DNA of 64,000 bases from Escherichia phage MRostami-2023e, in the sequence record OQ031495. One strand, 5' to 3'. Made by a program: the position numbers and the translations under genes. The notes under the pieces are model-generated. The model did no database searches, was not told where the DNA came from, and was given only the letters and a program-made list of their open reading frames with translations. Shown one piece after another: positions 6,448 through 30,056 of the stretch. How positions within the stretch are numbered: position 1 is the first letter of the stretch; each line of letters starts with the position of its first letter.

Positions 6448-6728
6448 CTTCACAAAACTGTTTACANNNNNNNNNNNNNNNNNNNNNNNNNNNNNNNNNN
6501 NNNNNNNNNNNNNNNNNNNNNNNNNNNNNNNNNNNNNNNNNNNNNNNNNNNNNNNNNNNNNNNNNNNNNNNNNNNNNNNNNNNNNNNNNNNNNNNNNNNN
6601 NNNNNNNNNNNNNNNNNNNNNNNNNNNNNNNNNNNNNNNNNNNNNNNNNNNNNNNNNNNNNNNNNNNNNNNNNNNNNNNNNNNNNNNNNNNNNNNNNNNN
6701 NNNNNNNNNNNNNNNNNNNNNNNNNNNN

Positions 6729-8271: not shown

Positions 8272-8504
8272 GTATAGCAATTTACATTAAATCAGAATCA
8301 TGTGATAGTTATCTATACACATACGATAAAGATGTGTCAGAAGAAAAAATCAAAGACGACCTTAATATGGACCTTGATATGTTCTGTCCTATTGCAGATT
8401 ACAAACTTGCGGTCTCTAATAGTGAAAGTCCATCTAAAGAAACGCGCATTGAAGAATTTATGTCCGAATTAATGGCCAAATCATGGGACCGAGATGATGA
8501 GTAA
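8268..8504 (+). CDS. hypothetical acidic small protein
   Basis: ORF; start ambiguous between 8253 and 8268. Confidence 0.45.
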   Translation: MSIAIYIKSESCDSYLYTYDKDVSEEKIKDDLNMDLDMFCPIADYKLAVSNSESPSKETRIEEFMSELMAKSWDRDDE

Positions 8505-8952
8505 GAAAAATAAAGTGAAAGAACTATCAGCCGGTATTATTTTCCTTACCGAAGATAAAGAATTATTCATGGGGCGTGTAACTGGTTCTCGTCCTAAAGG
8601 TTCTTTAGCTCATCGGTGGGATATTCCTAAAGGACGTGTCGAGCCCGGTGAATCTCCTATCGAAGCCGCTATTCGCGAATGCGAAGAAGAAACTGGGTTT
8701 ACACAATATGACCCTGCCTTCCTGAAAGACCTAGGTGAACATCATTACTCAGACAATAAGAATATTCATCTGTTCCTATATACCATCCCTGTAGAGCACG
8801 AGCAATTCAGAAACAGTGTTTGTAATTCCTATCATACGTTCCCAGACGGACGTCAGATTCCTGAATTTGATGCATTCGCTTTAATTAAACCTTCTCAATG
8901 GGAATATGTAATGGGCAAATCATTATATAAGGTGCTCACTACCCTCCTATAA
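8494..8952 (+). CDS. nudE: Nudix hydrolase NudE (T4 e.1 homolog)
   Basis: Nudix box GRVEPGESPIEAAIRECEEETG; position immediately upstream of e. Confidence 0.8.
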   Translation: MMSKKNKVKELSAGIIFLTEDKELFMGRVTGSRPKGSLAHRWDIPKGRVEPGESPIEAAIRECEEETGFTQYDPAFLKDLGEHHYSDNKNIHLFLYTIPVEHEQFRNSVCNSYHTFPDGRQIPEFDAFALIKPSQWEYVMGKSLYKVLTTLL

Positions 8953-8960
8953 GTAATAAA

Positions 8961-8984
8961 TACCTCCTATAAACGTGGGAGGTA
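8961..8984 (+). promoter_or_regulatory. RNA hairpin sequestering the Shine-Dalgarno of lysozyme gene e, with late-promoter-like TATAAAcg in the loop
   Basis: tacctcc (8961-8967) pairs with ggaggta (8978-8984), which contains the GGAGG SD 5 nt before the ATG. Confidence 0.55.
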
Positions 8985-8986
8985 TT

Positions 8987-9475
8987 ATGAATATATTTGA
9001 AATGCTTCGTAATGACGAAGGTCTTAGACTGACTTTATACAAAGACACTGAAGGCTTTTGGACGATTGGCATAGGCCATTTAGTAACAAAGAACCCGTCT
9101 TTAGCCGTAGCTAAAGCTGAACTTGACAGAATGATCGGACGTAAATGCAACGGTACAATTACCCTTGATGAGGCCGAAAAGCTATTTAATGAAGACGTTG
9201 ATAAAGCCGTTCGCGGAATCTTGGGTAATGCTAAACTTAAACCGGTATATGATTCTTTAGATGCGGTTCGTCGTTGTGCATTGGTCAATATGGTCTTCCA
9301 AATGGGTGTAGCAGGCGTCGCCGGTTTTACTAATTCTCTTCGTATGCTTCAACAGAAACGTTGGGATGAAGCGGCAGTAAATCTAGCCCAATCTAAATGG
9401 TATCGTCAGACACCTAATCGCGCGAAACGCGTAATCTCAACATTTAAAACAGGAACTTGGAAAGCGTATATATGA
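8987..9475 (+). CDS. e: T4-type lysozyme (endolysin, gene e)
   Basis: MNIFEMLR...DEGLRL..YKDTEG..TIGIGHL...[27 protein letters not shown] matches remembered T4 lysozyme nearly throughout. Confidence 0.95.
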
Positions 9476-9753
9476 AAACATATAGTGAATTTTTATCAGA
9501 ATCTATTCTTAACGAAGCTACTGACACATTTGCAACTAAGCTAGGTGCAGCTTTGGTTGAAGCCGAAAGTCTACTAGCACGTATTTCTGAACTTGCTAGT
9601 AAGATAGATACTCGCAAATTTGAACGTACTAGCGATATCGCTAAGCTTGAAGCCTTGTTACGTATGTGCAATAAACCGGAAGAAATCGCTAAGAACGGCT
9701 CGCTGATGAAACAACGTCTTGAAAAATATATTTCAGGCGCTTCAGAAAAATAG
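9472..9753 (+). CDS. internal protein (IPII/IPIII-like) with capsid targeting sequence
   Basis: N-terminus [10 protein letters not shown]; T4 position of ipIII/ipII between e and denV. Confidence 0.65.
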
Positions 9754-9754
9754 T

Positions 9755-9788
9755 GTTTACTTCCTCCAAGGGTTTTGATACTATACAT
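9755..9788 (+). promoter_or_regulatory. T4-type early promoter candidate upstream of denV
   Basis: GTTTAC ... gaTACTATac. Confidence 0.4.
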
Positions 9789-9811
9789 TCATCAACTACT
9801 TGGAGGAAATT

Positions 9812-10348
9812 ATGACTCGTATCAATTTAACACTTGTTTCTGAACTGACCGACCAACATCTTATGGCTGAGTATCGTGAATTACCACGCGTATTTGGTGC
9901 AGTCCGTAAACATGTTCAAAACGGTAAACGTGTAAAGGATTTTAAAATCTCTCCAACATTTATCTTAGGCACAGGTCACGTAACATTCTTTTACGACAAA
10001 CTTGAATTTTTACGTTTAAGACAAATCGAGCTAATCGCTGAATGTTTGAAACGTGGTTTCAAAATCAAGGACACGACAGTCCAGGATATTTCCGACATCC
10101 CTGCCGAATTTCGTAATAATTATGTCCCGTCCGAAGCGTCCATTGCGATAAGTCAAGCACGCTTAGATGAAAAAATTGCTCAACGTCCGACTTGGTACAA
10201 ATACTATGGTAAATCAATTTACCAAGGAAAAATGAAAATGTATCAAGAATTTATCATTGAAGCAGATGCCAAAGGTCCTAAAGTAGATGTTGACGATATT
10301 GGATACGATTTTAACAACTTCGGAATTATTTCTGGCGGTAAAGCTTAA
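9812..10348 (+). CDS. denV: endonuclease V (pyrimidine-dimer DNA glycosylase DenV) with about 40-aa C-terminal extension
   Basis: First about 136 aa match remembered T4 DenV ([34 protein letters not shown]..); normal stop position is read through into [16 protein letters not shown].. Confidence 0.85.
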
Positions 10349-10411
10349 ATTGTTTACGCTTAAGTATTAATATGGTATAATTACTCTATCAAAACAAACA
10401 AGGAAACAAAA

Positions 10412-10729
10412 ATGAAAACATATAAAGAATTTATCGCCGAATCTGCTGCAGGACAACGTGTAGAAGGTGGTTATATCTGGATTGAACAAGTTGAGCCGCC
10501 AAGTCGCACTTCTACAGGTAAATGGAAAATCACTGTTGATGGTCCTGGTGGTAAACGTAGGACTCTTAAAGAAATTAATGGGTACTATGAAGAAGCTCTT
10601 TCTGACGCGGGTACTTATATGATGCAAATCATGATTAAAAACCCAGAAAATCGTTTTGCGGCTAGAGTTTTCCGCCGTATTGGAAATAAGCTTTATGATG
10701 CATATTCTAAAAACTTCCCTAAAGAATAA
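10412..10729 (+). CDS. internal-protein-like protein with capsid targeting sequence
   Basis: N-terminus MKTYKEFIAES. Confidence 0.6.
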   Translation: MKTYKEFIAESAAGQRVEGGYIWIEQVEPPSRTSTGKWKITVDGPGGKRRTLKEINGYYEEALSDAGTYMMQIMIKNPENRFAARVFRRIGNKLYDAYSKNFPKE

Positions 10730-10745
10730 AAATTAAAGGAAACAT

Positions 10746-10777
10746 ATGAAAACATATCAAGAATTTATTACTGAAGC
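10746..10777 (+). CDS. internal-protein-like gene, 5' end only (continues into masked region)
   Basis: AAGGAAACATATG start; MKTYQEFITE capsid-targeting-like N-terminus; truncated by N-run. Confidence 0.5.
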
Positions 10778-11381
10778 NNNNNNNNNNNNNNNNNNNNNNN
10801 NNNNNNNNNNNNNNNNNNNNNNNNNNNNNNNNNNNNNNNNNNNNNNNNNNNNNNNNNNNNNNNNNNNNNNNNNNNNNNNNNNNNNNNNNNNNNNNNNNNN
10901 NNNNNNNNNNNNNNNNNNNNNNNNNNNNNNNNNNNNNNNNNNNNNNNNNNNNNNNNNNNNNNNNNNNNNNNNNNNNNNNNNNNNNNNNNNNNNNNNNNNN
11001 NNNNNNNNNNNNNNNNNNNNNNNNNNNNNNNNNNNNNNNNNNNNNNNNNNNNNNNNNNNNNNNNNNNNNNNNNNNNNNNNNNNNNNNNNNNNNNNNNNNN
11101 NNNNNNNNNNNNNNNNNNNNNNNNNNNNNNNNNNNNNNNNNNNNNNNNNNNNNNNNNNNNNNNNNNNNNNNNNNNNNNNNNNNNNNNNNNNNNNNNNNNN
11201 NNNNNNNNNNNNNNNNNTATTTACATTCAAATAACATGGGAACAACCTGGACCTCATGATTCTATGAGGGATTCCCGCCAACCTGTAATAAGGTCGAGCC
11301 CAAGTGCGGTAATGGGTTTACATAGCGAGTCGAAGGACCTAACATGTGCCACGGAATGGCCCAAACCTTAAGAGAAATAAT

Positions 11382-11921
11382 ATGAGAACATTTTTAACTG
11401 GACCTTATCTATCCCTGATGAATGCTTTTACACACCATTCTGATGCTAGAGTAGAAGAAATTTGTAAGAACGGATATGTCCCACCATTTGAAGACGTACT
11501 CAAGCAGTACTGTACACTTCGTTTAGACGGCGGCCGACAATCAGGTAAATCAATTGCTGTGACTAACTTTGCTGCTAATTGGCTGTATGATGGTGGAACG
11601 GTTATTGTTCTTTCTAATACTTCAGCTTATGCTAAAATTTCTGCTGGCAACATTGAAAAAGAATTTTCTCGTTATTCTAGCGACGATATTCGATTCCGTT
11701 TATTTACTGATTCTGTTCGTAGTTTTATTGGCAATGAAGGTTCTAAATTCCGTGGATTAACGCTTTCTCGTATTCTGTATATAATTGACGAGCCTATTAA
11801 AGCTCCTGATATGGATAAGATTTACAATGTCCATATTAAAACAGTACAGTACTGCTGTAAAAGCAAATATTGCATCGGCGGTAATGCTCGTCCTCAATTT
11901 TTTGTGATTGGAATGCAATGA
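11382..11921 (+). CDS. hypothetical P-loop protein (179 aa)
   Basis: Walker A-like GGRQSGKS. Confidence 0.5.
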   Translation: MRTFLTGPYLSLMNAFTHHSDARVEEICKNGYVPPFEDVLKQYCTLRLDGGRQSGKSIAVTNFAANWLYDGGTVIVLSNTSAYAKISAGNIEKEFSRYSSDDIRFRLFTDSVRSFIGNEGSKFRGLTLSRILYIIDEPIKAPDMDKIYNVHIKTVQYCCKSKYCIGGNARPQFFVIGMQ

Positions 11922-12226
11922 TGACCACTATTGAAGTTTTTGAATATTGTTATAACAGTCCAGTATGCAATAAAAGGGCCCTTGTAGAAAATTACGAGAT
12001 TTACCATTTTAAACCTAAACGATATCGTTTGACTAAAGGTCCGTTCGCAGGGCAGCAGGTTCTTTGTACTGCTCCTAATGCACGACTGATGACTAGTATT
12101 CCACATTTCAAAATGGAATTTATTGATGGGCCATTTAAGGGATTAATCACTCAAAGTTTAATGGCGTTTAATTCCGTCCCATTTTTGATTAAAGAAAAAA
12201 CTTGGATAAATTTATTTTCTAATTGA
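11918..12226 (+). CDS. hypothetical protein (102 aa)
   Basis: ATGA-coupled ORF. Confidence 0.5.
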   Translation: MMTTIEVFEYCYNSPVCNKRALVENYEIYHFKPKRYRLTKGPFAGQQVLCTAPNARLMTSIPHFKMEFIDGPFKGLITQSLMAFNSVPFLIKEKTWINLFSN

Positions 12227-13075: not shown

Positions 13076-13293
13076 TGGCTNNNNNNNNNNNNNNNNNNNN
13101 NNNNNNNNNNNNNNNNNNNNNNNNNNNNNNNNNNNNNNNNNNNNNNNNNNNNNNNNNNNNNNNNNNNNNNNNNNNNNNNNNNNNNNNNNNNNNNNNNNNN
13201 NNNNNNNNNNNNNNNNNNNNNNNNNNNNNNNNNNNNNNNNNNNNNNNNNNNNNNNNNNNNNNNNNNNNNNNNNNNNNNNNNNATCAAAGAGTA

Positions 13294-15154: not shown

Positions 15155-15578
15155 NNNNNNNNNNNNNNNNNNNNNNNNNNNNNNNNNNNNNNNNNNNNNN
15201 NNNNNNNNNNNNNNNNNNNNNNNNNNNNNNNNNNNNNNNNNNNNNNNNNNNNNNNNNNNNNNNNNNNNNNNNNNNNNNNNNNNNNNNNNNNNNNNNNNNN
15301 NNNNNNNNNNNNNNNNNNNNNNNNNNNNNNNNNNNNNNNNNNNNNNNNNNNNNNNNNNNNNNNNNNNNNNNNNNNNNNNNNNNNNNNNNNNNNNNNNNNN
15401 NNNNNNNNNNNNNNNNATGGACTGTTTTTTTTACTTTATGTAACGATGAAATGATATGTGATTTTGATTATTGGTGTTATTGCTATTGATACAATAAAGG
15501 ATGTACAAATCATACAGGTGAAGGTTTCTATTCCGGGTTTCAACCGTATCCAGACTTTGTNNNNNNNNGTGAACCTAA

Positions 15579-17288: not shown

Positions 17289-17669
17289 NNNNNNNNNNNN
17301 NNNNNNNNNNNNNNNNNNNNNNNNNNNNNNNNNNNNNNNNNNNNNNNNNNNNNNNNNNNNNNNNNNNNNNNNNNNNNNNNNNNNNNNNNNNNNNNNNNNN
17401 NNNNNNNNNNNNNNNNNNNNNNNNNNNNNNNNNNNNNNNNNNNNNNNNNNNNNNNNNNNNNNNNNNNNNNNNNNNNNNNNNNNNNNNNNNNNNNNNNNNN
17501 NNNNNNNNNNNNNNNNNNNNNNNNNNNNNNNNNNNNNNNNNNNNNNNNNNNNNNNNNNNNNNNNNNNNNNNNNNNNNNNNNNNNNNNNNNNNNNNNNNNN
17601 NNNNNNNNNNNNNNNNNNNNNNNNNNNNCAAGTTGAAGAACTTTATCGACATTTAAAACACAATCGGTA

Positions 17670-23549: not shown

Positions 23550-24485
23550 ATGGCTTTTATTACACGTAAAGAACTTATCAAAGAATTTACCTCGAACGCA
23601 TATACTCCAGGACCTAATCCTATCCGTATGCCTGTAAAGACTCCTGAAGAGATTGAGGAAGTCTGTTCATATTATGGGATTACTTCTCGTAAGTTTACTC
23701 AATTTGAATGCGTTACTAACACACCCGTTAAAGAGTTCATTAAAAATGGTGAGTTCAGCCGTTTATTAGCCAAACAGAAACTTCGTAATTTTTGTATTGG
23801 CGGTGAAGGACAATATTTCGCTAAGCAGTTCCGGAATAACCTTAACAATCTGATGGCCATTGCTTCTCGTATTCGTCCTCAAGCAATTAACATGAAACAT
23901 TTGAAATATACTTACGATAAGTTGGAAATCATGGTTATCAGTGAGAATGAGTTCACTCTTACGTATAAACCTAAGAATGATAACGTTGCTCGTGTATTTC
24001 ACCAAGCGTTGGAAGTTTTAGGTGATAATATCCACCAGATTAAAGCAATTTATTCACGTGAGCTTAATATTATCAACCCCATCAAGAATAAGGGTCATAT
24101 TGCTATCCAGGCTCGTGTATCTATTGGTAAAAAGGTTCCTGCGCCATGGTGGCACAAAGACTCTGAATACTATCAAAATCTTAAAAAGGAAAATGCATTG
24201 TTTGAAGCATCGCTTACTGGAACCCCAATTGAACAGGCCGAAGTCCTAAGTGCTTATTCTACTTCTNNNNNNNNNNNNNNNNNNNNNNNNNNNAAACTAA
24301 AAGTTTCTAATGACCTTCTTCCGGCCGAAGATTACCATTACAATCAAATCAAGGCCACTATGGACCAACTGTCTGTTGAACTTGACAAAGCACAAGCTAA
24401 GCTTCGTGATGCTCAAAGTGTTGTAACGAATCTCCAGTTGCAGTATTCTAAACTTTTTAACGCAATGAATGCATTAAAATCATAA
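23550..24485 (+). CDS. hypothetical protein (311 aa) with C-terminal coiled coil; contains 27-nt masked stretch
   Basis: ORF; C-terminal heptad-rich tail. Confidence 0.55.
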   Translation: MAFITRKELIKEFTSNAYTPGPNPIRMPVKTPEEIEEVCSYYGITSRKFTQFECVTNTPVKEFIKNGEFSRLLAKQKLRNFCIGGEGQYFAKQFRNNLNNLMAIASRIRPQAINMKHLKYTYDKLEIMVISENEFTLTYKPKNDNVARVFHQALEVLGDNIHQIKAIYSRELNIINPIKNKGHIAIQARVSIGKKVPAPWWHKDSEYYQNLKKENALFEASLTGTPIEQAEVLSAYSTSXXXXXXXXXKLKVSNDLLPAEDYHYNQIKATMDQLSVELDKAQAKLRDAQSVVTNLQLQYSKLFNAMNALKS

Positions 24486-27539: not shown

Positions 27540-27738
27540 NNNNNNNNNNNNNNNNNNNNNNNNNNNNNNNNNNNNNNNNNNNNNNNNNNNNNNNNNNNNN
27601 NNNNNNNNNNNNNNNNNNNNNNNNNNNNNNNNNNNNNNNNNNNNNNNNNNNNNNNNNNNNNNNNNNNNNNNNNNNNNNNNNNNNNNNNNNNNNNNNNNNN
27701 NNNNNNNNNNNNNNNNNNNNNNNNTTAAGTTAATAAAT

Positions 27739-28242: not shown

Positions 28243-30056
28243 AAATTGAAAAAGAAATTGAAGGATTAATTCATAAAACTAATAAAGACCTTTTAAACGA
28301 GAATGCTAATAAAGATTCTCGTGTTTTTCCAACTCAACGGGACCTTATGGCTGGTATTGTGTCTAAGCACATTGCCAAAAATATGGTCCCGTCTTTTATT
28401 ATGAATGCGCATGAAAGCGGAATCATTCACATGCATGATATTGATTATTCTCCTGCTCTTCCATTTACTAATTGCTGTTTAGTCGATTTAAAGGGGATGC
28501 TTGAGAATGGATTTAAATTAGGCAATGCTCAAATTGAAACGCCTAAATCTATTGGCGTTGCTACTGCAATTATGGCACAAATTACCGCACAAGTTGCTTC
28601 ACACCAATATGGCGGAACTACATTTGCGAATGTCGATAAAGTTCTTTCTCCTTATGTTAAACGCACATACGCTAAACATATTGAGGACGCAGAAAAATGG
28701 CAAATCGCTGATGCGTTGAATTATGCCCAATCTAAAACAGAAAAAGACGTATACGATGCATTCCAAGCTTATGAATATGAAGTAAATACTCTCTTTAGTT
28801 CAAACGGACAGACTCCTTTTGTAACAATTACATTTGGTACAGGAACCGACTGGACTGAACGAATGATTCAGAAAGCAATTCTTAAAAACCGCATTAAAGG
28901 CCTTGGTCGTGATGGAATAACTCCTATTTTCCCTAAGCTTGTTATGTTCGTTGAAGAAGGTGTTAATCTTTATAAAGACGATCCGAACTATGATATTAAG
29001 CAGCTTGCTTTAGAATGTGCAAGCAAAAGAATGTATCCTGACATCATTTCGGCTAAGAACAATAAAGCTATCACCGGCTCATCTATTCCTGTTTCTCCAA
29101 TGGGTTGCCGTAGTTTCTTGAGCGTATGGAAAGATTCAACTGGCAATGAAATTCTTGATGGACGCAATAATCTTGGCGTTGTAACACTGAATCTTCCTCG
29201 TATTGCGTTAGATTCTTATATTGGAACACAATTCAATGAACAGAAATTTGCCGAATTGTTCAATGAACGAATGGACCTGTGTTTTGAAGCTTTGATGTGT
29301 AGAATTAGTTCCTTAAAAGGAGTTAAAGCGACTGTTGCTCCTATTCTTTACCAAGAAGGTGCATTTGGGGTTCGTCTTAAACCTGACGACGATATAATTG
29401 AGTTATTTAAAAACGGTAGAAGTTCAGTGTCTTTAGGATACATCGGTATTCATGAATTGAATATTCTTGTCGGCCGTGATATTGGACAAGAAATTTTAAC
29501 TAAAATGAATGCTCATCTTAAACAGTGGACTGAAAGAACCGGTTTTGCTTTTAGCTTGTATTCTACTCCTGCTGAAAACCTGTGCTATCGCTTCTGTAAA
29601 CTTGATACTGAAAAATATGGAAGTGTAAAAGATGTTACTGATAAAGGCTGGTACACTAACAGTTTCCATGTTTCAGTAGAAGAAAATATTACTCCGTTTG
29701 AAAAGATTTATCGCGAAGCCCCATATCATTTCATTTCGNNNNNNNNNNNNNNNNNNNNNNNNNNNNNNNNNNNNNNNNNNNNNNNNNNNNNNNNNNNNNN
29801 NNNNNNNNNNNNNNNNNNNNNNNNNNNNNNNNNNNNNNNNNNNNNNNNNNNNNNNNNNNNNNNNNNNNNNNNNNNNNNNNNNNNNNNNNNNNNNNNNNNN
29901 NNNNNNNNNNNATTTGTTTGTTCTATGTGTGGAGAAACTGATCCTAAAAAGATGAACACAATAAGAAGAACGTGTGGTTATCTTGGAAACCCGAACGAAC
30001 GCGGATTTAATCTAGGCAAAAATAAAGAAATCATGCATAGGGTTAAACACCAATGA
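28239..30056 (+). CDS. nrdD: anaerobic ribonucleoside-triphosphate reductase NrdD (glycyl-radical region masked)
   Basis: 605 aa as T4 NrdD; C-terminal Zn/Cys cluster CSMCGE...RRTCGYLG; continuous ORF, no intron. Confidence 0.9.
   Translation: MKIEKEIEGLIHKTNKDLLNENANKDSRVFPTQRDLMAGIVSKHIAKNMVPSFIMNAHESGIIHMHDIDYSPALPFTNCCLVDLKGMLENGFKLGNAQIETPKSIGVATAIMAQITAQVASHQYGGTTFANVDKVLSPYVKRTYAKHIEDAEKWQIADALNYAQSKTEKDVYDAFQAYEYEVNTLFSSNGQTPFVTITFGTGTDWTERMIQKAILKNRIKGLGRDGITPIFPKLVMFVEEGVNLYKDDPNYDIKQLALECASKRMYPDIISAKNNKAITGSSIPVSPMGCRSFLSVWKDSTGNEILDGRNNLGVVTLNLPRIALDSYIGTQFNEQKFAELFNERMDLCFEALMCRISSLKGVKATVAPILYQEGAFGVRLKPDDDIIELFKNGRSSVSLGYIGIHELNILVGRDIGQEILTKMNAHLKQWTERTGFAFSLYSTPAENLCYRFCKLDTEKYGSVKDVTDKGWYTNSFHVSVEENITPFEKIYREAPYHFISXXXXXXXXXXXXXXXXXXXXXXXXXXXXXXXXXXXXXXXXXXXXXXXXXXXXXXXXXXFVCSMCGETDPKKMNTIRRTCGYLGNPNERGFNLGKNKEIMHRVKHQ

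Follow-up and report, generated by a model that had tools for sequence, protein, structure and literature searches.

A probable variable internal-protein cassette region around denV of a T4-like Mosigvirus

Background

Several small open reading frames (ORFs) close to denV of Escherichia phage MRostami-2023e (OQ031495) begin with a sequence resembling the capsid-targeting leader of the T4 internal proteins, which raises the question of whether they encode genuine internal proteins and what such proteins might act against. The window analysed here is a stretch of 64,000 nucleotides (64 kb) of this genome. Internal proteins have been described as a diverse set of defence proteins, and the role that the first-pass annotation ascribed to them, that of anti-defence effectors injected with the DNA, is a published view; the leader alone suffices for encapsidation (PMC3012670). 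Four internal proteins have been characterised as inhibitors. Ip1, Ip2 and Ip3 of T4 each inhibit a distinct GmrSD enzyme (PMC12373910), and Bas37_0260, a protein of 77 residues with the leader MKTYQEFIAE that is encoded in a polymorphic internal-protein (ip) locus, inhibits McrBC (bioRxiv 10.1101/2025.11.20.689424). Screens of Ip4-10, the prototypes of Ip5 and Ip10 among them, against a panel of GmrSD variants gave no reproducible inhibition (PMC12373910, Supplementary Fig. 9). Ten internal proteins, Ip5 among them, are attributed to Repoila et al. 1994 (EMBO J 13:4181, as cited in PMC12373910). This kind of locus is already known and has been on record since 1994. Earlier publications cover the type of locus and its leader as well as the shuffling model and the role against restriction.

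Results and discussion

Capsid-targeting leaders

Four genes with a capsid-targeting leader have been identified, all on the + strand and within a span of at most 1.3 kb. Their leaders start at the following positions.

9472, + strand: leader of IP-A
10232, + strand: leader of IP-B
10412, + strand: leader of IP-C, MKTYKEFIAE
10746, + strand: leader of IP-D, MKTYQEFITE

Three of these ORFs around denV had been pointed out in the first-pass annotation and are recovered here. In the six-frame translation of the entire window the pattern MK[T/M]YxEF occurs four times, and the looser pattern Y.EF[ILV].E likewise four times, in both cases within the locus and nowhere outside it. A set of 300 composition-preserving shuffles gave a mean of 0.0 (MK[TM]Y.EF) and 0.07 (Y.EF[ILV].E) occurrences per window. 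Every copy of the leader forms the start of an ORF with a ribosome-binding site upstream. The probability that the leaders are chance matches, or that the ORFs are not genes, is negligible given the absence of the motif from 300 shuffles as against four copies observed, the fact that each copy opens an ORF preceded by a ribosome-binding site, and the presence of orthologous ORFs in hundreds of phage genomes.

A prohead-protease site of the form (L/I)-x-E is predicted at the end of the leader in IP-B (IIE/A), IP-C (IAE/S) and IP-D (ITE/A), where the slash marks the predicted cut. IP-A has two candidate sites, LSE/S and LNE15/A, of which the second is invariant in the family. Since pairwise BLASTP among IP-A, IP-B and IP-C aligns just the first 11-19 residues, the bodies of these three proteins are mutually unrelated, as had been noticed before. 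Membership among the T4-type internal proteins was judged by a leader of about 10 residues, a predicted protease site, a position in the ip locus and homology of the body, and each of these features was found; the bodies are related to Ip5 (IP-A, 48%), Ip10 (IP-C, 70%) and RB69ORF125c/phrog_35655 (IP-B).

Gene order and comparison with relatives

The phage is T4-like and is a Mosigvirus of the RB69/JS09 type. The locus can with good confidence be regarded as the variable ip cassette region of a Mosigvirus, which flanks denV between the lysozyme gene e and vs.8. The genes follow one another along the window in the order nudE, e, IP-A, denV, IP-B, IP-C, IP-D and vs.8, and this order is a rearranged version of e-ipIII-ipII-denV-vs.8 of T4. 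The earlier reading of the region as a T4-type internal-protein locus is supported by the matches to PHROG families of internal head proteins, by the neighbours of the T4 locus and by the homology to the named proteins Ip5 and Ip10; the databases already list, as internal head proteins, entries that share 97-100% identity with the proteins of this locus. denV is a context gene that divides the ip cassettes.

The ipIII-ipII-denV region of T4, with the leader MKTYQEFIAE, shares its flanks (nudE and e on one side, denV and vs.8 on the other) with the present locus. Early-type GTTTAC promoter blocks stand before each of ipIII, ipII and denV in T4, and blocks of the same kind, together with AAGGAAAC ribosome-binding-site blocks resembling those of T4, are found here. 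The two cassettes of T4 are both placed 5' of denV, whereas this phage has one upstream and three downstream. IPI, IPII and IPIII of T4 align with IP-A, IP-B and IP-C in the leader only and show no similarity in the body. The exact late promoter TATAAATA was not found within 8400-11400; this is not evidence against membership because ipIII and ipII of T4 are likewise devoid of a canonical late promoter.

Among the phages compared, 839 Tevenvirinae records match the locus, and 189-494 phage records retain intact ip ORFs, with identities as low as 48-52%. The Mosigviruses JS09, RB69, AV110, Bas46 and vB_EQ1, with overall nucleotide identities of 95-96%, carry the same cassette families. The content of the locus varies among the relatives and comprises A, denV, B38 or B86 (the 38- and 86-residue forms of B) and C, followed by IpII, IpIII, Ip4 or a 109-residue type. 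The observation of an expanded and divergent locus is confirmed. T4 has two cassettes, the present phage four. vB_EQ1 is 100% identical over 9400 to about 10440, bar a deletion of 144 nt in IP-B, and again over 11218-11395; in vB_EQ1, B86 is followed directly by ipIII, without IP-C. The exact combination of cassettes is absent from the phage collection, where the closest full-length match to 10350-10777 reaches 95.8% identity and is made up of two pieces.

The gp21 prohead protease and the scaffolding core are expected in the same genome, as in Straboviridae. Going by T4 synteny, the head-gene cluster is expected outside the window, whose genes extend from the e region towards vs.8, vs.7 and vs.6. 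Comparison of 8900-12000 with Rfam (E<=1) yielded a single match, at chance level.

IP-A and the region upstream of denV

The first cassette and the control region that follows it are as given below.

9472 to 9753, + strand: IP-A, 93 residues, internal protein of the Ip5 family (ORF and its translation)
9755 to 9808, + strand: intergenic control region (promoter pattern and RNA fold)

The start codon of IP-A overlaps the stop codon of gene e (ATGA). IP-A matches phrog_3499, annotated as internal head protein (E=5e-46), and shares over its full length an identity of 48% with Ip5 of T2, T6, RB15 and Bas37_0261 (E=9e-24). The residues N14-E15-A16 are invariant among the homologues while E10 is variable, and the protease site of IP-A is most likely L-N-E15/A, as predicted from its conservation in the family. 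The body of IP-A is 100% identical in vB_EQ1. The structure model comprises three helices at a pLDDT of 72, and Foldseek search of this model against the PDB gave no match.

The Ip5 proteins (RB15, RB32, T2, T6, Shfl2 and Bas37_0261) have the helical body and the (I/L)-x-E15 site in common with IP-A. They differ in their leader, MKTFKEFATK, and in their position: Ip5 sits in the other ip locus, between 57B and trna.4, which is the ipI slot of T4 and is occupied by Ip5 in T2, T6, RB15 and Bas37, whereas IP-A adjoins gene e. A relationship of IP-A to Bas37_0260 was considered and rejected; the relative of IP-A in KarlGJung (Bas37, MZ501089) is the neighbouring bas37_0261, which is Ip5. The body of Bas37_0260 has no similarity to that of IP-A, IP-B or IP-C.

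An early-type promoter of T4, GTTTAC-N18-TACTAT, is located at 9755-9784 and overlaps a hairpin at 9761-9808 that is predicted to pair with the Shine-Dalgarno sequence of denV. The fold has an energy of -19.8 kcal/mol (z=-3.3), which none of 200 shuffles equalled. T4 has the same layout 5' of denV with another stem sequence (CTCCTGTAG/CTACAGGAG).

denV, IP-B and a lost stop codon

The region 3' of the hairpin comprises denV and, within its extended reading frame, the second cassette.

9812 to 10348, + strand: denV, endonuclease V (Pfam Pyr_excise, E=4e-14; phrog_1183)
10223 to 10225, + strand: CAA in place of the denV stop codon TAA (comparison with relatives)
10232 to 10348, + strand: IP-B, 38 residues, RB69ORF125c family (phrog_35655, E=2e-29)

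The product of denV contains the pyrimidine-dimer glycosylase domain of 137-138 residues ending in WYKYYGK(A/S)IY and is 91% identical to T4 DenV over 137 residues. It is read as 178 residues and not as 137-138 because the stop codon TAA is replaced by CAA, and the ORF runs for 41 further codons (Q138 to A178) that take in the whole of IP-B. The first-pass annotation had described the sequence MKMYQEFI at this point as a remnant at the tail of denV. The leader is indeed present; the term remnant does not apply, as IP-B is an independent small gene that has a ribosome-binding site (AAGGA) and a start codon of its own, and it is in frame with denV only because of the change from TAA to CAA. The family of IP-B, phrog_35655/RB69ORF125c, is annotated as internal head protein in RefSeq.

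The TAA codon is kept in JS09, AV110, Bas46, p000v, phiEC1 and two IMG/VR contigs, that is in all the other loci inspected, with the sole exception of vB_EQ1, which also has CAA and in which denV is annotated with 226 residues. The loss of the stop codon could be functional if DenV carrying an internal leader and protease site were packaged in the head and injected as a repair enzyme. The in-frame read-through does place the leader, followed by /ADAK..., within the fusion, and the occurrence of the CAA allele in vB_EQ1, an independent isolate, argues against a sequencing error of one genome. Such a role is nevertheless highly improbable: the allele is found in two genomes only, the promoter of denV is of the early type whereas head assembly is late, and the simplest neutral account is a single T-to-C transition. 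To our knowledge the function of the leader has so far been demonstrated at the N-terminus only, which also speaks against an internal one.

IP-B corresponds to an 86-residue gene of vB_EQ1 from which exactly 144 nt have been lost between two 6-nt direct repeats (CCTAAA), the rest being 100% identical. It is an in-frame deletion derivative of the 86-residue internal protein, the deletion taking away 48 of 76 mature residues. Cleavage of the leader would leave a peptide of 28 residues that is acidic (pI 4.3). The exact deletion between CCTAAA repeats also fits the alternative that the locus is in part decaying, the 38-residue IP-B being a dead deletion remnant and the fusion with denV a neutral or mildly harmful accident. 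The same is suggested by a frameshift of IP-B in UFV13 and the loss of its first ATG in p000v, by the restriction of the stop-loss allele to one other record, and by the debris tolerated at the locus, namely a 5' remnant of denV and a frameshifted 5' end of vs.8. Against decay, JS09, phiEC1 and the present phage all retain the short IP-B allele with its frame, leader and ribosome-binding site intact, and it makes up a PHROG family of its own. We consider this partial decay a real possibility, at somewhat below even chances.

IP-C and the recombination joint

The third cassette is preceded by its own promoter.

10352 to 10381, + strand: early-type promoter of T4, GTTTAC-N18-TATAAT with TG extension, upstream of IP-C
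10412 to 10729, + strand: IP-C, 105 residues, Ip10 family, leader MKTYKEFIAE/S (phrog_3966, E=6e-34)
10412 to 10441, + strand: leader-coding segment with the recombination joint (five-way alignment)

IP-C is a homologue of the annotated Ip10 proteins (Pol, SP18 and VR7) with identities of 70-72%, the value for Ip10 of SP18 being 70%, and its orthologue in JS09 is annotated as Ip10-like (phage Pol). The body is represented in 189 phage records, which include Mosigvirus, Tequatrovirus, VR7-like and Enterobacter (CC31-like) phages. An exhaustive search with the body has revealed one true cluster of relatives, at 52% identity. The other five hits, to FG-GAP, RTX, filamin, CBM60 and SdrD repeat proteins, were rejected as spurious multi-stretch matches. 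The structure model of IP-C (pLDDT 48) is too poor for structure search.

The sequence is identical to the ipIII cassette of vB_EQ1 through ATCGCCGA and continues with an IP-C body of the teqhal type; the mismatch profile against vB_EQ1 stands at 0 from 9400 to about 10400 and diverges thereafter. The alignment places a recombination joint exactly where the IP-C leader ends. The allele combines a Tequatrovirus (teqhal)-type body with a promoter and leader of the Mosigvirus (vB_EQ1 ipIII) type. Exchange of cassettes among phages would proceed by recombination within the common promoter, ribosome-binding-site and leader sequences.

IP-D and the 3' end of the locus

The fourth ORF enters a masked stretch (10778-11217) after 11 codons, as had been recognised earlier.

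10746 to 11048, + strand: IP-D, leader MKTYQEFITEA visible at 10746-10777, remainder masked, end inferred from JS09
11218 to 11234, + strand: TATTTACATTCAAATAA, conserved junction block at the 3' end of the cassette region (comparison with relatives)

A 162-residue ORF at 10746-11234 is an artefact of translating the run of N. The spacing of 490 nt from the start of IP-D to the anchor equals that of JS09 and AV110, which carry IpII and a denV remnant in this layout; the corresponding spacing is 604-616 nt with ipIII types and 475 nt with Ip4 types, which disfavours both an ipIII-like and an Ip4-like IP-D. Because its spacing equals the JS09 layout, the masked IP-D is probably an orthologue of ipII (Ip2) of 100 residues. 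The counterpart in JS09 is 93% identical to T4 IPII.

The junction block is the tail of the ORF for the denV 5' remnant of JS09 (JS09_060), whose product is 81% identical to residues 1-36 of T4 DenV and ends in FTFK*. This tail is common to JS09, AV110 and EQ1, with near-identical versions in Bas46 and phiEC1. In T4, ipII is preceded by a related block, AAATATTTACATTTAAAGGAAACATATG. vB_EQ1 is 100% identical over the 178 nt that follow the mask. At 30 nt downstream of the junction block, vs.8 begins with its frameshifted 5' end. The G+C-rich segment 11235-11381 was considered as a structured RNA and rejected, as its fold is not superior to that of shuffles (z=+0.37); the segment corresponds to the 5' part of vs.8, which is frameshifted and the first 18 codons of which are 100% identical to T4 Vs.8.

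Possible role of the internal proteins

By analogy with T4, the leader (first 10-15 residues) would direct each product to the scaffolding core of the prohead, where gp21 would cut after the Glu of (L/I)-x-E, at E10 in IP-B, IP-C and IP-D and most likely at E15 in IP-A. The mature protein would stay in the head with the DNA and be injected at infection. Packaging and cleavage are, on this analogy, very likely for IP-A, IP-C and IP-D; for the 38-residue IP-B the chances would be about equal either way. A literature search has revealed no virion proteomics of these proteins.

Once injected, the proteins would probably serve to block a host nuclease directed against the modified-cytosine DNA of the phage, and to do so ahead of all phage gene expression; a type IV restriction enzyme is the most probable target. 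The mature bodies of IP-A, IP-B and IP-C are not related to the characterised inhibitors Ip1, Ip2, Ip3 and Bas37_0260. Pfam, NCBIfam and PDB sequence searches with the three proteins gave nothing significant, and their sequences point to no mechanism, with no domain, no solved relative and low or moderate confidence of the models. The first-pass annotation had proposed candidates of unknown specificity; this stands for IP-A, IP-B and IP-C and not for IP-D, whose specificity, as that of an Ip2 orthologue, is probably known already. Action of IP-A, IP-B and IP-C against type IV restriction appears to us an evenly balanced prospect.

The proteins might alternatively be packaged and yet function chiefly as basic counter-ions of the condensed DNA or as aids to its packing. 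Mature IP-C, after the predicted cleavage, is basic (pI 9.6, net +4.5), as are IPII and IPIII of T4, and solid-state NMR indicates that lysines of T4 internal proteins touch the DNA phosphates (PMC3012670); the lack of reproducible GmrSD inhibition by Ip4-10 is also consistent with a packing role. On the other hand mature IP-B is acidic and mature IP-A nearly neutral, and the unrelated bodies, the exchange of cassettes and the presence/absence variation among near-identical phages fit an arms race. Moreover, all four of the leader-bearing internal proteins so far characterised are specific restriction inhibitors. A mainly packing role is hence improbable, and an anti-defence role is preferred.

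Within the anti-defence role, it is tentatively suggested, though on the unlikely side, that IP-A, IP-C or the IP-B family are injected inhibitors of defences beyond the GmrSD enzymes paired with Ip1-3. The hydroxymethylcytosine of RB69-type phages is arabinosylated. As candidate targets one may consider nucleases recognising this modified hydroxymethylcytosine in the phage DNA, or systems other than restriction.

Conclusion

The window adds to the known picture one extra mosaic order of cassettes, a clean recombination joint where a leader ends, and a read-through allele of denV and IP-B. If some of these proteins do inhibit other defences, the repertoire of internal proteins would extend to new classes of targets. 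Internal proteins enter the cell with the DNA and can therefore act before phage gene expression; they help to set the host range of T-even phages, which bears on the choice of therapeutic phages.

Gene order of the internal-protein locus

The source phage is a T-even phage of the genus Mosigvirus (RB69/JS09 type), and the region 8950-11400 shares 95-96% nucleotide identity with AV110, JS09, Bas46 (ChristianSchoenbein) and p000v. Four small genes, referred to as IP-A to IP-D, surround denV.

Features of the locus
8494-8952, + strand, nudE, 152 aa
8987-9475, + strand, e (lysozyme), 162 aa
9472-9753, + strand, IP-A, 93 aa
9812-10348, + strand, denV, 178 aa, long reading through a lost stop
10232-10348, + strand, IP-B, 38 aa, same frame as denV
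10412-10729, + strand, IP-C, 105 aa
from 10746, + strand, IP-D, masked beyond codon 11
11382-11921, + strand, vs.8, 179 aa

Since T4 has nudE-e-ipIII-ipII-denV-vs.8 in the equivalent position, the locus is the T4 ipII/ipIII locus in a rearranged and enlarged form. The window contains 10 masked N runs totalling 1,928 nt (1799-1827, 6467-6728, 10778-11217, 13081-13282, 15155-15416, 15561-15568, 17289-17628, 24267-24293, 27540-27724 and 29739-29911), and ORFs called across them are artefacts. A 162-aa ORF at 10746-11234 was rejected as one arising from translated Ns.

Capsid-targeting leaders

The first-pass annotation had placed the N-terminal capsid-targeting leader of T4 internal proteins at several ORF starts around denV. 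In the six frames of the 64 kb window MK[TM]Y.EF has four matches, all of them the leaders of the four IP genes, and the looser Y.EF[ILV].E finds the same four and no further match (mean matches in block-wise shuffles 0.0 and 0.07, respectively). All four are ORF starts with an AGGA-type ribosome-binding site upstream; the fourth, MKTYQEFITE, belongs to IP-D, which is the ORF reported as cut by the mask. BLASTP alignments between the IP proteins are confined to the first 11-19 residues, and the bodies are therefore unrelated to each other, as had been claimed.

IP-A and IP-C families

IP-A matches phrog_3499, 'internal head protein' (5e-46), and its body is present in 494 phage records. About half of these are relatives of ~54% identity sited between 57B and trna.4, the T4 ipI slot, whose protein is named Ip5 in the GenBank entries of the original survey (Z35082, RB15; also RB32, T2 and T6). 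Ip5 aligns end to end with IP-A (48% identity, E=9e-24), and hence one body family occupies both polymorphic loci. These Ip5 relatives of IP-A (about 48% identity) lie in the other ip locus, beside 57B, in ~250 Tequatroviruses including T2 and T6, as in Shfl2 (L015, 1438-1695) and Bas37 (L019, 2864-3121). A relationship of IP-A to the leader-bearing protein Bas37_0260 was rejected, as the Bas37 protein related to IP-A is Ip5, encoded next to it by bas37_0261. N14-E15-A16 is invariant in the IP-A family whereas E10 is variable, and Ip5 has I-T-E at the E15 site; the predicted cleavage of IP-A is therefore more likely after E15 than after E10. The start of IP-A overlaps the e stop (ATGA), so that e transcripts presumably serve as its mRNA.

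The IP-C body is shared by 189 records, with identity falling to about 50% in Enterobacter phages, and an exhaustive search for remote homologues gave one true cluster and no other. Ip10 of SP18 is 70% identical to IP-C, and the annotation of the JS09 orthologue gives similarity to Ip10 of phage Pol.

IP-B and the read-through of denV

IP-B belongs to the RB69ORF125c family (phrog_35655). The denV/IP-B junction is ...ATTTAC TAA GGAAAAATGAAAATG in every other locus read there. The stop is replaced by CAA in the window (10223-10225), so that denV continues in frame through IP-B as a 178-aa ORF. This variant is absent from IMG/VR and is seen elsewhere in the phage collection only in vB_EQ1 (PQ516281), with denV annotated as 226 aa; the stop-loss is thus a real but rare allele.

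IP-B is the 86-aa gene of vB_EQ1 less exactly 144 nt, in frame, the remainder being 100% identical. The junction, 10282/10283, is flanked by two CCTAAA direct repeats, and the deletion has the appearance of a slippage or illegitimate-recombination event. The short allele also occurs in JS09 and phiEC1. The earlier description of IP-B as a 'remnant' at the denV tail is fair in that it is a deletion form, but the gene still has a ribosome-binding site and a start of its own, with leader and frame preserved.

Mosaic structure among relatives

Locus composition in related phages (A and C, IP-A and IP-C families; B38 and B86, 38-aa and 86-aa forms of IP-B)
JS09: A, denV, B38, C, IpII, denV remnant
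AV110: A, denV, B86, C, IpII, denV remnant
Bas46: A, denV, B86, C, IpIII
phiEC1: A, denV, B38, C, IpIII
vB_EQ1: A, denV fused to B86, IpIII
teqhal and Bas41: denV, C, Ip4
ECO07P2: A, C, IpIII, Ip4 (without denV)
one IMG/VR contig: A, denV, B86, IpIII and a 109-aa type

Between e and vs.8 the Tequatrovirus ECO07P2 (L013, 1105-3050) has neither an annotated denV nor its start motif, and denV behaves like a dispensable cassette of the locus.

Between 9400 and the IP-C leader, the IP-B deletion aside, the window and vB_EQ1 share 100% identity, as they also do in the 178 nt past the mask at 10778-11217. In a five-way alignment it follows the vB_EQ1 ipIII cassette through the promoter, the ribosome-binding site and ATGAAAACATATAAAGAATTTATCGCCGA, after which it has the Tequatrovirus (teqhal)-type IP-C body, ATCTGCTGCAGGACAACG..., and this switch places a recombination joint at the final leader codon. 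Recombinational shuffling via conserved flanks was reportedly proposed by Repoila et al. in 1994, and the joint is an instance of it. No record in the phage collection has the exact cassette combination of the window.

The masked IP-D gene and the start of vs.8

Over its first 32 nt IP-D equals the corresponding gene of JS09 and AV110, which encodes a protein with 93% identity to T4 IPII. From the IP-D start to the conserved ATGGGAACA anchor there are 490 nt, a spacing identical in JS09 and AV110, as against 604-616 nt in ipIII-type and 475 nt in Ip4-type loci. As the body bases are masked, we infer from these features that IP-D is an ipII orthologue, followed as in JS09 by a short denV 5' remnant.

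JS09 (L001, 3655-3792) and AV110 carry a 45-aa denV 5' remnant 3' of ipII, and that of JS09 (JS09_060) is 81% identical to residues 1-36 of T4 DenV; this suggests that denV formerly lay immediately 5' of vs.8, the arrangement of T4. The remnant tail TATTTACATTCAAATAA is readable immediately past the mask (11218-11234), and T4 has a related block, AAATATTTACATTTAAAGGAAACATATG, upstream of ipII. The G+C-rich 'spacer' at 11264-11381 is the 5' part of a T4-type vs.8, whose first 18 codons match T4 Vs.8 at 100% identity before two frameshifts intervene; the annotated Mosigvirus start at 11382 is an internal Met.

Expression signals

T4 early-type promoters (GTTTAC-N18-TAnnnT) lie upstream of denV (9755) and IP-C (10352), and T4 ipIII, ipII and denV carry the same promoter blocks. 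No exact late promoter is found within the locus. At 9755-9808 the denV Shine-Dalgarno base-pairs with a segment 5' of it in a hairpin (-19.8 kcal/mol, z=-3.3) that contains the early-type promoter. Read-through transcripts from e/IP-A would thus have the denV ribosome-binding site hidden in the hairpin, and those initiated at the promoter would have it exposed. The layout recurs upstream of T4 denV, where the stem differs in sequence, and this suggests that the structure is conserved.

Upstream of e, a 12-bp hairpin at 8959-8986 (within 8948-8986; -16.3 kcal/mol, z=-3.4) encloses the Shine-Dalgarno, and two near-consensus late promoters, TATAAGTA and AATAAATA, lie just 5' of it. T4 gene e is translated from late transcripts only, and this arrangement resembles that of T4.

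Functional implications

IP-A, IP-B and IP-C have no Pfam or NCBIfam domains and no relatives in PDB. The IP-A model has three helices at moderate confidence (pLDDT 72) and no fold match, and that of IP-C is of poor confidence (pLDDT 48). The mature IP-C is basic (pI 9.6), IP-A near neutral and IP-B acidic. As these sequences carry no functional clue, the argument for a putative anti-restriction role rests on their class.

The leader is sufficient for encapsidation and internal proteins are regarded as diverse anti-restriction proteins (PMC3012670). Ip1, Ip2 and Ip3 each inhibit a different GmrSD enzyme (PMC12373910), and Bas37_0260, likewise leader-bearing, is a McrBC inhibitor (bioRxiv 10.1101/2025.11.20.689424). 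With these precedents, the proposal that the IP proteins are candidate injected anti-defence effectors agrees with the accepted reading of internal proteins. However, none of ip4-10 reproducibly inhibited the GmrSD variants tested (PMC12373910), which counts against simple extrapolation.

The observation made in the first-pass annotation is correct, for a type of locus known since 1994, and the databases have near-identical entries for the IP proteins, many of them already labelled internal head proteins. What is new is small, namely this mosaic arrangement, a joint visible where the leader ends, and the denV/IP-B read-through allele in common with vB_EQ1. The experimental interest is confined to the targets of the Ip5-like, Ip10-like and ORF125c-like proteins.
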